Below, in pieces: positions 15,001 to 21,000 of a stretch of 64,000 bases of DNA. Position 1 is the first letter of the stretch. Each line of letters starts with the position of its first letter. Made by a program: the position numbers. The stretch is from positions 96,001-160,000 of the forward strand of contig JAZDKJ010000008.1 in NCBI GenBank assembly GCA_043803105.1, read 5' to 3'. The DNA comes from Candidatus Woesearchaeota archaeon (GTDB taxonomy: Archaea > Nanobdellota > Nanobdellia > Woesearchaeales > JAZDKJ01).

Positions 15001-18000
15001 CCGCGAGCCATACCCTGATGAAGGGAATCGGGGTGTTGAGGGACTTGAGCTACAGAGAATTTCCGGTTCAGACAGCGAGCGATCATGAGGCAATCGCCAG
15101 CATAATCAAGGGATACAAGGGAGCCAAAATAATCTGGGAAGAATTCTCTTCCAAAGGGAATCCAACGAGGGCAAAGTTCTTGGTTCAAAGAGATGCAAAG
15201 ATGGAAATGGACAAAGGACCAGAGTACTTTAGGGAAGCATTATACTGGCTAATAAAAAATCAGGTTTACAAAGGTAAATCAGTAAAGGGAGGATTCCATT
15301 ACCATGATGCATCACTTGTCACTGTGTTTGGCAAGGGAATTGGGAACTCTCACATTGAGATAGGAAAAATCCATGAAATATTGAGCAAGATTGAGCTTTC
15401 AGATAAACTTGAAGGCAAGGAATACATGTTCCCTGTCGAGGTCAAGGAGGATATGCTCCACCTTGTTGTGCGGGAGAAAGACACAAGCCCGGTTGCCAAT
15501 GGCATTTACAATGAGCTGAAAAAGATAAACATTGTGCTTTACGGTCTTGGCAAAGTAGGGCAAAGGTTTCTCGAACAAGCCATGTCAAGGTATCAACAGC
15601 TTGGAATCAACATTGTTGGGGTGGCTGACAGCCTTGGCGTGATCACCAAGCCTGATGGTCTGAGCATAAAAGAATTATCCATGATTAAGGGCATGAAGGC
15701 AGATGGCATAAAGCTTAAAGACATTTCAGTCGGTGAATACCTGCATAGACAAGAGGCTTTGGACCTTAGCAAGATTTTCAGATATGCCAAAGGCGACATG
15801 GTATTGATAGATGCGACTCCTGAGCCGCAAATGCTCTCAACGATTTCCCAGGCATTGAAATTGGGTGCTAGTGTCATATCAGTAAACAAGACTCCTTACG
15901 CAACAAAACCCCAGGCATGTAATGACAGGTCCACCAAACGCAAGATAAGAAAATTGTTCGAAGGTGTGCTGTCAGAAAGAGTTCTCAACCGCGGTACGGT
16001 AGGTGCAGACCTGGGCATACCTGGCACATTGTTAGGGGTTCTGGCCACAAACCCAGAATATGTGACTGTAAGAGGATGCATGAGTGCTACGTGCGGATAC
16101 ACAGCAGCTTCACTTAGTACAATGCGTTTTTCAGAAGCCATACAAAGTTCCATATCCAAGGGATATACAGAACCTACTCCTTTTGATGACTACTCAGGAA
16201 ATGATATACTTCGCAAGACCATAATACTGTGGAGAATGATTGCCAGCAAATATGGCCTTGACATGTTCAACATAGACATCAAGCATGAAAGCTTCATCGA
16301 GCCGATGATAAGGCTCTTTGAGAAGAAGGGAGGCAACCGAGCAGAATTTGCAGACATTAGCCAACTTGACGCAGTTCAATTTGTAGAAAAAATGAAGGTT
16401 TTAGATCGTTATTTTATAGAGCTCCAATCAGAGCTTGGAAAAGATTATGTGTTCAGATACGTTGCAGAAATAAGGTATAACCCTATGGCCTTGAACACTA
16501 TCGCCAACAAATATGAAATCTCAGTTGGATTAAAAAAATTACATAAGGACAGCATTCTTGGCGGGCTCGATGGACCTGAAAATCTGGTTGTATTTGGCGC
16601 AGGCGAAGAGCCGAAGAAGACTTATGGTCTTCAGCCAGGGCCTGGTGGAGGGCACGAGGTCACTGCAAGCGCGATAATGCACGACCTGGAAAAGATCATT
16701 GAAAGAGCCCGGGGAAGAAGAAAGGGGCAGGTTATCGAGGTATTCAAACAGAACGAAACAACAAAAACTCCTAAATACACTACTTTCTTTTTTAGCCATA
16801 CACAACAACGATTGAGGGATTATGTCTCGAAAGGGACACTGCATCCTTAATCTTGGCAAAGCTTCGAAAAGGATGTGCATACTTGAGAAAAAGTAGACTT
16901 GCAAGAAAATACAATGCAAGGCCCGCAATAGCTTTTGAACACCCTTACTGGGTTTTCTCTGTTGCGAAGCGTGTTGATATTCATGATAGTAACGAAAAAA
17001 CTCTTGTTAAGGATTTGAGCGACCTTATGACTGAAGCCAGGGATCTATATGGGTGGGTAGGGATAAGTTCTAACAACTTGATGTGGAATGCCACAAAGAT
17101 GCCAATCAGAGTAATCCAGGTGCTTGCTCCAGAAGGGGGAGACTACTTAACTCTTACGAATCCTGAGCTAAAGGAGATTTGTGGAGAGAAATTCGAATCG
17201 CATGAAGGTTGCGGTTCATTTCCCGGAAGAATGTATTGGGTACAAAGGTATCCCTATGTGCGCCTGGTTGGAATCCAACTTTATCATGCCAAATTCGAGC
17301 AAATAGAACTAATATACGGAGCAAAAGACGTGAAATTAGAGTGGCCAGAATGTTGTGTTAATGAAAAGCTCCAGCCAGTTCGTGTAGTGCAGCACGAATG
17401 CGATCATTTAGAAGCCATAGTCATACCTAAACTTGCTTATTCAATGAACAGGAACCAAAACAAATATAAATGAATTTGGAACCATCAAGACAGATGCCCC
17501 GTTGGTGTAGCCCGGCGCAATGGAACTTCAGTTAGAGGTTCCATGCGGGAACAATCATTCGGCCCTCTCGAGGCCGAGACTCGGGTTCAAACAGCCTTTT
17601 TCCATAGGAAAAAGCCTGGGGAAAGGCTTTTTTGCCTTCGGCAAAAAAGTGTGTTTCAAAGGTTTCAAATGTGGGAGGGTTAGAAAATCCCGAACGGGGC
17701 ATTAATTTCTTAACACCATATAACAGAATTCAACGAGTTCGCAACATATTTAAGGGGAAACTAGTTTTTATGTCAGCAAGCCGCGGTCGCATACTCACAG
17801 AACAAGTTCTGTGGTCGCGACCTTGTGTGGCAATCTTCAAGCTAAATAGCTTGATGGCAATAAGATCAATTTTGCCGCGGTCGCATAATCCGGTACGCGC
17901 TGGATTCCTCCGGAATCCGCTGGTGTCCCGTGCGCGGAACATTGCGGCAGTCTCGAACCAATGCAAGAGAACTGCTGTCCGTAAGGGCATCTCGGTTCAA

Positions 18001-21000
18001 ATCCGAGCCGCGGCGTTTACACAATGTATATCCCAAAGCGTTACGGCCAGAGCAAGATTGACAAGTGCCCTTTCTGCGGAAAACAGGCCATCGCACTTAA
18101 CAAGCAGAAGGTTCCAGTCTGTGAAGCGCACAAATGGAACAATCTGGATGAGATGAAATGCAGCTGCGGAAGCTACCTGGAGATGAAACATGGGAAATTT
18201 GGGGTATTCTTCGTTTGCTTCAAGTGTGGAAACAAGAACCTAAAGCAGGTGCTTGAGATAAATGAGCCCAAAGATAAGAGCAGCAGTCAGAATGAAATAA
18301 CTGTAAGGTCTGATGACCCAAGGTACTTCTAAAATAAAAAGATTTAAAAAGAGGGGTTTCCTCATATTAACAAAATTGATATTTTTGGGAGGTGAATAAA
18401 TTGGCAAAAGAGGTAAAAACAGCGAGTAGTAGCATGACACAGACAATAGGAGGCTGGGCATTCATCATCGGTGTCATCATTGCAGTAATTTCTGGATTTT
18501 TTATGCTCAGCGCAACGCTTGTCTCAGTACTTGTATTGCTGGGATTAATAGTCGGCTTCTTGAACATAACAGGCAAAGAGACAATGGGGTTTTTGATGGC
18601 AACCGTGTCTTTGGTAATTGTTAGCTATTTCGGAGGCCAAGCCTTAAGCGAAATCGCTTTTGTTGGCACGGTGCTTGCAGGCATCATGAATGCAATAATG
18701 ATATTTGTGGTACCAGCAACAATTGTCGTGGCCCTGAAGTCAATATTTGCAATGGCACACGATTAGGTTTTTTATTTTTTTTTATTTTAGAATTCTTTGA
18801 AGGCAAATTTAGAATAGTCTGTTGGCAAAAGCACTGAATCTTGTATCCATCTGTATTTCGGTTGTTTTAGGTGCACCTTGCCTGTATCCAGATGCGAATA
18901 GGTCAACAACCAAATCAATAAATGGTTTTGGTTTTGCAGCCCATTTAGCGCTTTGCACATCTGCCTTTACCTGTATTATATAATCGAGACCTTTGTCTCC
19001 GAAAATGGCTCCGCTTAGCATTGCCTCGATGATATCAGCCTTCGTAACATTATAGTTCGCAGGGACACATCTCCTCCGTGTCATAACATCTGCAATACCT
19101 TGAACAATTCCTTCCTGCACTCCCTTAACAAAAGCCAGACTCACCGGATGATTATGGAAAGCGAAAGCTGCAATCGGCACCTGGGAGGCATACAAATTTG
19201 CCTTATCCCGGTTTAGATCCATCAACATCCAGACTGGATCCTTGGAGTTGCTAATGGTCCTCTTGAGGTACTCAAACTCCCTGTAACCAATATGAGAAGG
19301 AGGAGCACTGACATAGTGGCCTCCAAGAATTGGAAATCGAAATTCTGTGGTATCATAAGTACTTTCATAGTTGAATGAAGCATTCCTAAGTATTGTAACA
19401 AGAAGTTTAACATCTTTCCGTGAACAACGCATTTTCTTGGAAGTTGGAATTCGTTCGCCTATCATAACAGAACCTATTGTTCTCTGAGGATTTATAAAGA
19501 TTTGCCCACCAAAGCGCAGCTTGTGATGATGGTTGCTTTACCGAGACCTCGATTCTGACTTGGTCCTTTCATGTCTCAAGGCGCATCCCAAAAAAACGTC
19601 AGCTTTAAAAGAGGACAAGGCATTCTCCTTGTTAATGATAAGCAAGGCTTTTTTGGATTGGAATGGGGTACTGCTAGCGGATGGTTCGGCTTGCTTTGAT
19701 ACTGACAACCATATGCTGAAAACATTTGGTGGTAACCTAGTCGATTTCAAGACCTTCAGAGACACTATAGTTATCCCTTCAATAGACTTCTACGTAATGC
19801 ATGGTTGCAATCGGGAACAATTGGAGAGAGATTCAAAAGAAGTTTCAAAGGTTTTTCATGCTTATTTTGAGAAAAGAGAATCGAAGTGCAGGACAAGGAA
19901 GGGGGCAAGGGAGGTTTTGTACTGGCTAAGGGAGAATTCAATCGAGACCATAATCGTGACGAATCACACTGTCGCAGGGCTTGAACTTCAACTATCAAGA
20001 CTTAAACTCAAAGAATACTTCTCCGCAGTTGAAGCCAATCCAGACGGAAATACGTCGATGCACACAACGAGCAAGCTGGAAAAGGTTTGCCGGCACTACA
20101 GCAGGAATGAGGGGGCATTGATCCTTGGAGATTCGCCCGAAGAAGTCAAAATTGGAAAAGAGCTAGGCATTCCAACTGTTGCAATAACCGGCGGATATTA
20201 TTCCACAAAGAGGCTTAGACAAAGCCAGCCTGATTACCTGATTAACAATTGGAAAGAACTGATTGGAGTAATAAAGGAAATCAGATAAGAACCAGAGATA
20301 ATTTTTTTGATCTATTGCAGCTTTAGCACATAATCCTTTAAGGTTGAAGTTCTTAAGACAGAGCAATTCCTTCAAGATATTTTTCGCTTTTCAGGTCTAA
20401 TGAATAGAATGTCTTGTCATAGTTTGCGAAGTATGCCACATCTCCTTTCTGGAGTAGAAAGGCAGGATAGGATATCTTGCCAGTGTTGCTGATGGCCAAT
20501 TTGCCACTCTCCACATCATACAAAGTATCTCCATCCTCCAAAGAAAACAACCTGCCGCCAAGAGTAAGTAATGCGGCCGGAATGAACGGCACCAGTCCTT
20601 TCTCGAAATTTTCCAGAGGATATTCTATTTTTGAGAATGGCTTTCCTGGGTGGCGTAGGTCATAGCAGGTATGGTGGTCTCTTCCAAGCACCAATAATGG
20701 CAAATCTGTTCGATGGGTTTGGTGACTCCAAAATCTACAGCTGCTTATGCAGTCTGCTTGGGAGGAGAACCAGGATATGGTCATCAATTCATTGTTTATG
20801 TCTTTTTTTGGTACATACTTAGCGATGTATGGGGCAACTTGTTGCTCAAGTTCGACTGTTTCTTTAAATGGTCGGACTATCTTTTTTCCATCCCTGGAAA
20901 GATAGCTTACCTGTCCATCTATCTCAAAGTGCCCAGGTATTATTTTACAAGGCAGTTTTACTTCTCCGATTTCTTTGGAAAAACTTAGCAAAGTGTTACG

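Follow-up and report, generated by a model that had tools for sequence, protein, structure and literature searches.

Predicted tRNA genes with one to three introns, most often in the T loop, and a single insert-free EndA gene in a Woesearchaeota-like DPANN archaeon

The analyzed stretch of DNA, referred to as the window, comprises 64,000 nucleotides (positions 96,001 to 160,000 of contig JAZDKJ010000008.1) of a Candidatus Woesearchaeota archaeon, whose assembly (GCA_043803105.1) is 96.5% complete and consists of 13 contigs. In the window, both ARAGORN and the Rfam model RF00005 detected 0 tRNA genes. The preliminary description had stated that standard tools see few tRNA genes in this genome, and this was borne out: over the whole genome, ARAGORN reported four tRNAs without and nine with its intron option, while six matches passed the gathering score of RF00005 and 15 had E ≤ 1. 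Genes were instead defined by explicit parsing of anchors, splicing guided by bulge-helix-bulge (BHB) motifs, and ARAGORN analysis of the spliced sequences. Four predicted tRNA genes, for Glu(CUC) (CTC in the DNA), Ser(CGA), Glu(UUC), and Ala(UGC), were recovered from the window (Table 1).

Table 1. Coordinates of the predicted tRNA genes, introns, and upstream element in the window
Feature	Position	Strand	BHB count	Remarks
tRNA-Glu(CUC) gene	17496..17701	+		exons 17496-17516, 17552-17591, 17688-17701; discriminator base at 17701
D-loop intron of Glu(CUC), 35 nt	17517..17551	+	(4,0,2)	D-arm fold
T-loop intron of Glu(CUC) at 59/60, 96 nt	17592..17687	+	(3,5,8)	
Element upstream of Ser(CGA)	17780..17822	+		copy of Ser tRNA nucleotides 1-14; conserved 8-bp hairpin; arm complementary to nucleotides 6-13
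tRNA-Ser(CGA) gene, class II	17874..18015	+		exons 17874-17894, 17941-17957, 17970-18015; T loop uninterrupted
D-loop intron of Ser(CGA), 46 nt	17895..17940	+	(4,3,5)	full hBHBh'; fold
37/38 intron of Ser(CGA), 12 nt	17958..17969	+	(3,8,1)	
tRNA-Glu(UUC) gene	36658..36913	+		94-nt 59/60 intron at 36806-36899; D-arm insert of ~87-88 nt, junctions approximate
tRNA-Ala(UGC) gene	56631..56778	+		16S-23S spacer; spliced form is Ala(tgc) by ARAGORN
D-loop intron of Ala(UGC), 14 nt	56650-56663	+	(3,4,1)	
37/38 intron of Ala(UGC), 44 nt	56681-56724	+	(3,7,7)	
59/60 intron of Ala(UGC), 18 nt	56747-56764	+	(3,5,4)	

Excision of the two introns of Glu(CUC) left 75 nt, which ARAGORN identified as tRNA-Glu(ctc); the acceptor and T stem had served as its anchors. 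This gene had earlier been credited with three introns; it requires only two to be removed, from the D loop and from the T loop. The D-loop intron shows a complete central helix (4/4) and an inner helix of 2 bp, a 1-nt bulge, and 6 bp; it has no outer helix next to its 3' bulge and is therefore a relaxed motif (HBh'-like). In the T-loop intron, the outer helix is the T stem (5 bp), T54-A57 provide three of the four central pairs, and the inner helix is 8 bp long; this intron also contains an A/T-rich hairpin and the CCTGGGGAAA module. Removal of both introns from Ser(CGA) gave an 84-nt class II sequence that was recognized by ARAGORN as tRNA-Ser(cga). The 12-nt length of its 37/38 intron precludes an inner helix, and the 5' splice site is therefore situated in the loop of a hairpin (bulge-helix-loop-like).

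The anchor-based catalogue of the whole genome holds 40 tRNA genes, with five genes unparsed, five parsed by eye, and about six expected isoacceptors absent. Thirty-seven of these genes are interrupted and three are not; the heavy interruption claimed earlier from 21 genes thus persisted in the larger set, and the number of uninterrupted genes was three in both. The tally amounts to at least 70 introns. An intron at position 59/60 of the T loop occurs in 30 of the 40 genes, in line with the earlier statement that this is the chief site, and one at 37/38 in at least 19. Three introns per gene, the maximum previously given, were found in Ala(UGC), by in-silico splicing, in Phe, by eye, and in Leu(UAA), Lys(UUU), Arg(CCU), and Pro(GGG). 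Parsing gave 28 genes whose D, anticodon, and T arms are normal, and for 46 of 60 anchor candidates at least one BHB-guided splice produced a sequence that ARAGORN, run without the intron option, accepted as a tRNA. A relaxed anchor scan (7,089 candidates, 291 of which passed the filters) yielded no further convincing gene. Two other approaches were rejected. The masking of ORFs as a means of narrowing the search fully masked Ser(CGA) and one other locus, and long-ORF masking was abandoned because real tRNA genes were hidden by it. A blind SPLITS-like run with the ARAGORN intron option returned many conflicting anticodons, and explicit parsing was used in its place. As judged from the predicted genes and their spliced products, it was confirmed that the tRNA genes of this archaeon nearly all contain short introns, one to three in each and most frequently located in the T loop.

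The T-loop introns share a common structure. For all 21 T-loop inserts that were parsed, 59/60 was the best of eight possible splice registers. A bulge-helix-bulge was present in 25 of the 25 T-loop introns examined; its outer helix is formed by the T stem, and nucleotides 54-57 lie in its central helix. The four bases located 5' of the 3' bulge pair with T54-R57 in every one of them, with four of four pairs in 15 introns and three of four in 10. The inner helix directly beside the 5' bulge is absent in about half of the T-loop introns, and about half have a strict hBHBh' motif. The agreement of all 25 cases points to a clear structural constraint on the intron ends.

The other two sites are more variable. 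In 16 of 17 introns at 37/38, the central helix has three or four of its four pairs, and the outer helix measures 5-8 bp; those of 12-14 nt are too short for any inner helix. Among ten resolved D-loop introns, only two have both flanking helices by the criteria used here, and the D-arm inserts as a whole match the BHB poorly. Many of the predicted intron motifs in this genome are thus relaxed, namely D-loop motifs without an outer helix and the 12-14-nt introns at 37/38 without an inner helix.

The genome encodes the components that the processing of such transcripts would involve. RtcB and Archease, both mentioned in the preliminary description, are encoded by adjacent genes, the RNase P RNA is present, and an RNase Z-like gene adjoins that of EndA. 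The following sequence of events can be proposed. In the precursor RNA, each intron would pair with the neighboring exon, so that the splice sites come to lie in 3-nt bulges around a 4-bp helix. At 59/60, the T stem would serve as the outer helix and T54-T55-C56-R57 would pair with a YGAA-like tetranucleotide near the 3' end of the intron; the 5' bulge would be formed by nucleotides 58 and 59 with the first intron base, and the 3' bulge by the last two intron bases with nucleotide 60. The single EndA, with the build of the M. jannaschii alpha4 enzyme, would cleave both bulges as a presumed homotetramer, RtcB with Archease would ligate the exons, and RNase P and RNase Z would trim the tRNA ends. 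We assign a probability of about 0.72 to the reading that the genes of this Woesearchaeota-like DPANN archaeon encode functional tRNAs and that their interruptions are protein-spliced (BHB) introns. Splicing itself, the homotetrameric state of EndA, and its cleavage of the relaxed sites are what we infer from the sequences.

The putative endonuclease is of the plain type described earlier, i.e., an alpha-type protein of 203 aa without loop inserts. One PF01974 match was found in the genome; the 203-aa ORF contains PF02778 at residues 35-98 and PF01974 at residues 110-195 in one chain, the same domain order as in the M. jannaschii alpha4 enzyme (1a79), to which residues 43-203 align without gaps. 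Relative to 1a79, the protein retains the aligned Tyr, His, and Lys, which we take to be the catalytic residues, with the same Tyr-to-His spacing of nine residues, as well as an acidic loop of equal length before the last strand, a loop that serves in dimer-dimer contact in alpha4 enzymes. The inserts L1, L2, and L3 are absent: the protein has neither the +9 N-domain insert of A. pernix nor the +6 Lys-rich insert of N. equitans. Unlike the M. jannaschii enzyme, it begins with a 30-residue Lys/Glu-rich N-terminal tail. EndA therefore fits the alpha4 architecture and presumably acts as a homotetramer.

We consider it unlikely that the introns are real while this plain EndA needs a second structural subunit or an RNA-binding factor that escaped the searches through strong divergence or through a location in the 3.5% of the genome absent from the assembly. 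Such a partner would be in keeping with the closest PDB sequence, the N. equitans catalytic alpha subunit (3iey_A, E 8e-40), which works with a beta partner. It would also fit the published view that relaxed D-loop motifs and mini 37/38 motifs are cut only by insert-bearing enzymes (PMC5829648, PMC4090602). Since the assembly is 96.5% complete, a second subunit could sit in the missing part. However, searches with PF01974, PF02778, and the EndA protein as queries converged on a single gene in this assembly. An order-wide EndA profile (--max, 11,865 six-frame ORFs) also returned only this gene, with the next match at E = 0.14, and hence the divergent second subunit that the preliminary description feared might have been overlooked did not appear in the six-frame search. 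EndA was detected in 59 of 61 genomes of the order and as exactly one match in 57, several of which have a reported completeness of 100% or consist of a single contig according to their records. In addition, two features that are absent or shortened in the N. equitans alpha subunit, the N domain and the acidic loop, are retained in this protein. That subunit and the ARMAN-2 epsilon2 enzyme (4fz2) are likewise from DPANN archaea, but they have a partner subunit or fused units together with a Lys-rich C-domain insert, whereas the present EndA has neither.

The interrupted genes appear to have a dynamic history. Ser(CGA) had been described as differing from its orthologue in a congener at all three intron sites, and the sequence comparison of this one orthologue pair agreed: the present gene has a 46-nt D-loop intron, a 12-nt intron at 37/38, and no T-loop intron, whereas the congener has no D-loop intron, a 50-nt intron at 37/38, and one of about 87 nt in the T loop. 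The exons are alike in both genes, and their T stems differ by paired changes; the introns are unlike at all three sites. Within the genome, the introns of Gln(CUG) and Glu(UUC) share 94% identity over 32 nt, and those of Ile(GAU) and Gly(CCC) 87.5% over 40 nt. A CCTGGG(G)AAA module recurs in introns and gene flanks, with 13 of its 45 copies within 250 nt of a tRNA gene (counted against the 37 tRNA genes then catalogued). Turnover of the introns is fast, and these near-identical segments in unrelated tRNAs and the repeat module in the flanks make them look mobile.

An improbable explanation is that some inserts, chiefly those in the D arm or beside partial tRNA copies, are scars or insertions of small mobile elements and that some loci are pseudogenes. 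The weak BHB at most D-arm inserts and the distribution of the module would be compatible with this, as would three further observations: partial 5' and 3' tRNA copies adjoin intact genes, three of four tyrosine-recombinase matches sit 0.56-0.8 kb downstream of tRNA genes, and one Ser-like gene has two acceptor mismatches. On the other hand, excision of the D inserts restores normal D loops with GG and products that ARAGORN accepts, the affected genes are the sole copies of their anticodons in the catalogue, and the D-loop intron of Ser(CGA) has a full hBHBh'. As for the odd Ser-like genes, one gave no match when compared with the congener and the other a 21-nt match (E 0.01).

Decay of the tRNA set, with the cell dependent on host tRNAs, is very improbable: about six isoacceptors were not found in the catalogue and DPANN archaea are often symbionts, but conserved positions and paired stems are all intact in the exons, a full tRNA processing set is encoded, the intron ends are structurally constrained in 25 of 25 cases, and archaea are not known to import tRNAs.

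The reading of functional genes with BHB introns can also be placed in the context of the order. The preliminary description spoke of intron turnover within the genus, together with a plain EndA; in the order-wide comparison, the pattern was not confined to that genus. In 36 of 36 aligned order sequences, EndA is gapless from residue 31 on, and the 35 relatives also lack L1, L2, and L3. The 59/60 signature pattern gave 176 matches across the order vs. 64 in a reversed control, and genomes with more signatures had fewer Rfam-visible tRNAs (Spearman -0.65, n = 61, kinship ignored). The T-loop intron signature thus spans the order and tracks poor tRNA detection, and the insert-free EndA build runs through an order that ranges from few to many T-loop introns.

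The number of Lys and Arg residues in the EndA tail, counted from the first in-frame Met as the start codon, was also negatively correlated with the number of Rfam-visible tRNAs (Spearman -0.62, 31 genomes, one per family, kinship ignored). All seven genomes with at least 33 visible tRNAs have no more than four Lys/Arg in the tail, and six of the eight with 12 or fewer have 8-30. These values allow the tentative and rather doubtful suggestion that Woesearchaeales represent a fourth route to a permissive EndA, in which an expanded Lys/Arg-rich N-terminal tail of a loop-less alpha4 enzyme would replace the internal Lys-bearing loop and let T-loop and other introns, borne by a small family of mobile repeats, spread through nearly the whole tRNA set.

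Comparison with known systems demonstrated both similarities and differences. As in Thermoproteales, BHB introns occupy both canonical and non-canonical positions, with as many as three in a gene, and related introns occur in unrelated tRNAs; in contrast, their EndA is heterotetrameric with a Crenarchaea-specific loop, while a single loop-less alpha gene was found here, and 59/60 dominates in the present genome. All four of the positions 20/21, 29/30, 53/54, and 59/60 have been published as intron sites (PMC4090602). Pyrobaculum calidifontis has 71 introns in 46 tRNA genes (PMC8450103), and the minimum of 70 introns in 40 genes reported here is a higher density; even as a minimum tally, this predicted load is the densest among the published cases that we found. 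Partial tRNA copies beside intron-bearing genes and recombinases beside tRNA genes also feature in the model of tRNA disruption by an integrating element for Caldiarchaeum subterraneum (Sugahara et al., 2012, PMC3293823); here, however, the copies are separated by just 57-130 nt with no gene encoded between, and the module is common to introns and flanks.

Intron-rich, multiply interrupted tRNA genes are by common view linked to an EndA that has gained a partner subunit or an insert bearing Lys. In PMC4090602 and PMC5829648, alpha4 EndA is described as strict for the full motif, and the former places the M. jannaschii enzyme in a genome with few, canonical introns. Kaneta 2018 (PMC5829648) connects disrupted tRNAs in DPANN archaea with an alpha4 EndA bearing L3, a Lys-rich insert located between the catalytic Tyr and His (PMC3239211). 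The present genome resembles those cases in its alpha4-type gene, its many disrupted tRNAs, and the incomplete sets obtained with standard tools, but Lys-rich L3 is absent both here and in the 35 aligned relatives. With its dense intron load, relaxed motifs, and insert-free EndA, it departs from the accepted picture and raises the question of what sets EndA specificity. Manual tRNA curation was called for by Kaneta 2018, and in a 2026 preprint that covers 208 complete Nanobdellota genomes, missing tRNAs were left unexplained (10.64898/2026.05.13.725050); introns of the kind predicted here offer a concrete cause for incomplete DPANN tRNA sets.

A minor observation concerns the element upstream of Ser(CGA) (Table 1). 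Its assignment to a BHB intron was rejected, since it folds into nothing more than an imperfect hairpin, and pairing between its two copies of nucleotides 9-12 is impossible. A C/D-box guide was rejected as well, with CTGA following the antisense strand in just one of three copies, as was a connection with the sole Y1 transposase, whose gene flanks bear a different hairpin. Among 401 genomes, the pattern of this element was confined to the present genome, with three copies, and its congener, with one.

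The standard tools recognised few tRNA genes in the studied genome (G000; 1.56 Mb in 13 contigs, 96.5% complete). For the whole assembly, ARAGORN reported four tRNA genes, or nine with its intron option, and the Rfam model RF00005 gave six matches above the gathering score and 15 at E ≤ 1, which reproduces the low counts claimed in a preliminary description of this DNA. In the 64-kb window, ARAGORN detected no tRNA genes, and the Rfam matches at the gathering score were confined to the 16S rRNA, the 23S rRNA, and a group I intron. Across 61 genomes of the order Woesearchaeales (a single genome for each family, with completeness of 85% or more), the number of RF00005 matches at E ≤ 1e-5 varied from 4 to 43 per genome, with the minimum in G000.

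Both strands of the genome were scanned with an anchor consisting of a 7-bp acceptor stem, U8, C61, a 5-bp T stem, and GTTCRA. The catalogue comprised 40 tRNA genes: 33 from the anchor scan, two from ARAGORN (Ala-CGC and Thr-CGU), and five parsed by eye. Only three of them (Val-GAC, Ala-CGC, and Thr-CGU) were uninterrupted. An intron at the T-loop site 59/60 was present in 30 genes, an intron at the anticodon-loop site 37/38 in at least 19, and a D-arm insert in 12; the rarer sites were represented by single cases at 29/30, ~52/53 (two homologous introns), and 53/54. Together, the 40 genes carry at least 70 introns, a minimum in which five genes with unplaced inserts were entered with one or two introns apiece. 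In the tRNAscan-SE 2.0 paper, the maximum among 217 archaeal genomes is 71 introns in 46 genes, and the mean for Thermoproteales is 0.84 introns per gene (PMC8450103). The heavy interruption of tRNA genes in G000 is a real observation, and the overall interpretation of the preliminary description was supported. About six expected isoacceptors (Asn, Cys, Trp, elongator Met, and two Thr) were missing from the catalogue, to which a relaxed anchor scan contributed no gene.

Four catalogue genes are located in the window. The preliminary description had assigned three introns to tRNA-Glu(CUC), which was not reproduced; two excisions suffice for ARAGORN to recognise the spliced gene. Its claim of up to three introns per gene was borne out by tRNA-Ala(UGC).

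Coordinates of tRNA genes, introns, and associated features in the window, on other contigs (C) of G000, and on L004
Feature	Position	Strand	Remark
tRNA-Glu(CUC)	window 17496-17701	+	spliced 75 nt, ARAGORN tRNA-Glu(ctc)
Glu(CUC) D-loop intron, 35 nt	window 17517-17551	+	in-silico excision
Glu(CUC) T-loop intron, 96 nt, between nucleotides 59 and 60	window 17592-17687	+	in-silico excision
Hairpin element upstream of tRNA genes	window 17780-17822	+	
tRNA-Ser(CGA), class II	window 17874-18015	+	spliced 84 nt, ARAGORN Ser(cga)
Ser(CGA) D-loop intron, 46 nt	window 17895-17940	+	in-silico excision
Ser(CGA) 37/38 intron, 12 nt	window 17958-17969	+	in-silico excision
tRNA-Glu(UUC)	window 36658-36913	+	
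tRNA-Ala(UGC), rRNA spacer	window 56631-56778	+	three introns
Group I intron within 23S rRNA gene	window 58808-59058		80 bits (Rfam)
tRNA-Phe	C12:181423-181652		parsed by eye
Two Ser-like genes	C6		parsed by eye
tRNA-Ser(GGA)	C7:30536-30757		parsed by eye
tRNA-Arg(UCU)	C12:114355-114476		parsed by eye
tRNA-Ile(UAU)	C6:245346-245466	+	anticodon loop CTTATAA; 37/38 and 59/60 introns
tRNA-Ile(GAU)	C10:3423-3642	+	
Ser-like class II gene	C6:304225-304322		G73; ARAGORN too gives GAA
Ser-like class II gene	C6:263590-263770	-	G73
Ser-like class II gene	C6:403290-403470	-	
Tyrosine-recombinase match	C10:29288-29785	+	downstream of Ser(GCU)
Tyrosine-recombinase match	C6:520767-520267	-	downstream of Leu(UAA)
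Tyrosine-recombinase match	C7:31539-32033	+	downstream of Ser(GGA)
RtcB match	C6:10055-11377	-	550 bits
Hairpin element copy	C6:449376-449425	+	
Hairpin element copy	C6:221251-221200	-	
Hairpin element copy	L004 1546-1405	-	

The introns were compared with the bulge-helix-bulge (BHB) splicing motif, scored as the number of pairs in the 4-bp central helix, of consecutive outer-helix pairs, and of consecutive inner-helix pairs; splicing is predicted from the gene sequences throughout. For all 21 parsed T-loop inserts, 59/60 was the best of eight registers. In each of the 25 listed T-loop introns, the exon side consisted of the T stem, TTCR, and two purines, and the intron ended with a YGAA-like tetranucleotide and two bases before nucleotide 60. 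The central helix had all four pairs in 15 of them and three in 10, with the mismatch at position 57 in eight cases and at position 54 in two. Among the 37/38 introns, 16 of 17 showed three or four central pairs on an outer helix of 5–8 bp. Twelve 37/38 introns were just 12–17 nt long, and those of 12–14 nt are too short for an inner helix, which places the 5' splice site in a hairpin loop. Both flanking helices were found in two of the ten resolved D-loop introns, Ser(CGA) (4,3,5) and Pro(GGG) (3,4,3), and one was missing in the other eight. The D-loop intron of Glu(CUC), one of these eight, has a perfect central helix and a long inner helix, but its 3' bulge widens into a 4 × 4 internal loop adjoining the D stem. 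As judged from these predicted pairings, much of the intron set is made up of near-canonical motifs in non-canonical positions, and a real minority is made up of relaxed motifs.

In the comparison, the genus was otherwise represented by a single genome, that of a congener (84% complete). Its tRNA-Ser(CGA) exons matched those of G000 save for a few changes, those in the T stem being paired; however, it lacked the D-loop intron (46 nt in G000), carried a 37/38 intron of 50 nt versus 12 nt, and had a 59/60 intron of ~87 nt that is absent from G000. The comparison of the two genes confirmed the claim that they differ at all three intron sites. Within G000, T-loop introns of unrelated tRNAs had similar segments in common: Gln(CUG) and Glu(UUC) (94% over 32 nt), Gln(CUG) and Leu(UAA) (95% over 21 nt), and Ile(GAU) and Gly(CCC) (87.5% over 40 nt). 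A repeat module, CCTGGG(G)AAA preceded by an A/T-rich hairpin, occurred in 45 copies, 13 of which were located within 250 nt of tRNA genes (37 genes tested), in introns or flanks and on either strand. In addition, several tRNA genes had a copy of their own first 13–24 nt upstream or of their last 12–20 nt downstream, at a distance of 57–130 nt from the gene. Ile(GAU) has an extra copy of its last 12 nt ~100 nt downstream. Before this copy stand a tetranucleotide and two bases that also suit the 59/60 motif (BHB 4,5,0), which makes the copy a candidate alternative 3' exon. Of the four tyrosine-recombinase matches in G000, three were located 0.56–0.8 kb downstream of same-strand tRNA genes, within frames of 429–451 aa extending back toward the tRNA. 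These frames may be integrated elements, and their position recalls the model described for Caldiarchaeum, in which an integrating element disrupts a tRNA gene (PMC3293823).

The genome had one PF01974 and one PF02778 match, both in a 203-aa open reading frame on contig C4. A search of the genome with this EndA itself revealed nothing else, and a 36-sequence profile of the order, run with filters off against 11,865 six-frame reading frames, recovered EndA at E 3.8e-99, with the next match at E 0.14. The closest solved relative was the alpha subunit of N. equitans (E 8e-40), followed by the M. jannaschii enzyme 1a79 (E 1.5e-35), to which residues 43–203 aligned without a gap. The spacing between the aligned Tyr and His is nine residues, as in M. 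jannaschii, whereas the six extra, Lys-rich residues of N. equitans at this place and the nine extra N-domain residues of A. pernix, which correspond to inserts L3 and L1, respectively, of Kaneta 2018 (PMC5829648), are absent. An acidic loop precedes the last strand; its length is that of the M. jannaschii loop, whereas the N. equitans loop is two residues shorter. The only EndA found is, as in the preliminary description, a plain alpha-type protein without loop inserts. Its residues 1–30 form a Lys/Glu-rich tail. The EndA gene is flanked by a divergently oriented RNase Z-like gene, RtcB and Archease are adjacent on contig C6, and RNase P RNA is also encoded in the genome. The RtcB match contains one internal in-frame TAG, which might reflect a break of the frame, the edge of an intein, or read-through.

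In the sample of 61 Woesearchaeales genomes, PF01974 was present in 59, with exactly one match in 57, and all full-length matches spanned 255–261 nt for 83–85 model positions. The 36 aligned EndAs were gap-free from residue 31 on, save for single-residue gaps, and all kept the nine-residue Tyr-His spacing. A short 59/60 intron pattern (GTTCRAA, 10–40 bases, GAAARTCC) was present in 49 of the 61 genomes, with 176 matches versus 64 for the reversed pattern used as a control; in G000, all nine matches were within catalogue genes. The pattern count dropped with rising Rfam tRNA count (Spearman -0.65, n = 61, kinship not corrected), the mean being 5.0 in the 19 genomes with at most 15 Rfam tRNA matches and 0.86 in the 21 with at least 30. 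The order-wide matches and this trend indicate that T-loop introns are shared by many Woesearchaeales, beyond this genus. The EndA build, as judged from the alignments, is unchanged across the intron load in the order. What did vary in EndA was the Lys+Arg content of the N-terminal tail, which dropped as visible tRNAs rose (Spearman -0.62, n = 31; kinship uncorrected, start taken as the first Met in frame) and serves as a lead.

Multi-intron tRNA genes as such are already known: published accounts of other archaea include introns at non-canonical sites, among them 20/21, 29/30, 53/54, and 59/60, and genes with as many as three introns (PMC4090602, PMC4033280). The text of Kaneta 2018 links DPANN alpha4 enzymes with L3 to more disrupted tRNAs and notes incomplete tRNA sets requiring manual curation (PMC5829648). 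For 208 complete Nanobdellota genomes, a 2026 preprint counts 26–54 tRNAs each by tRNAscan-SE and offers no explanation for missing Trp and Val tRNAs (10.64898/2026.05.13.725050). Full-text searches on tRNA introns of Woesearchaeota and DPANN found no account of T-loop introns in this group; the figures and supplements of Kaneta 2018 may show a Woesearchaeota EndA. The new features are the intron density in G000, the predominance of the 59/60 site, and the coexistence of numerous introns, part of them with relaxed motifs, with an EndA that lacks every feature linked to relaxed specificity to date.

Three Ser-like class II tRNA genes had non-Ser anticodon loops, namely CTGAAGA and CTGAAAA (GAA being the Phe anticodon) and CTGATGC. 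G000 also has a normal class I Phe(GAA), as well as Ser(GGA), Ser(CGA), and Ser(GCU); the catalogue contained no Ser(UGA), and a search of the congener revealed no clear orthologue of the odd genes, which could represent pseudogenes, parsing errors, or unusual decoders.

The group I intron in the 23S rRNA gene is of a kind described for Woesearchaeota (PMC6125680). The 16S match was 1598 nt long for a 1478-position model, so this gene may contain an insert as well.

Three tRNA genes, Ser-CGA, Arg-UCG, and Arg-GCG, have a hairpin element 22–52 nt upstream. The element is made up of an exact copy of tRNA nucleotides 1–14, CT, a conserved 8-bp hairpin (CACAGAAC / GTTCTGTG), GTC, and an arm complementary to the 5' part of its own tRNA. 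The arm varies with the tRNA, with both-sided changes at 4 of 15 pairs. The element was rejected as a BHB; every copy folds as a stable hairpin (z-scores -2.6 to -4.5). The congener had two tandem copies, one with a different hairpin, and among 401 genomes of the order the pattern was confined to this genus.
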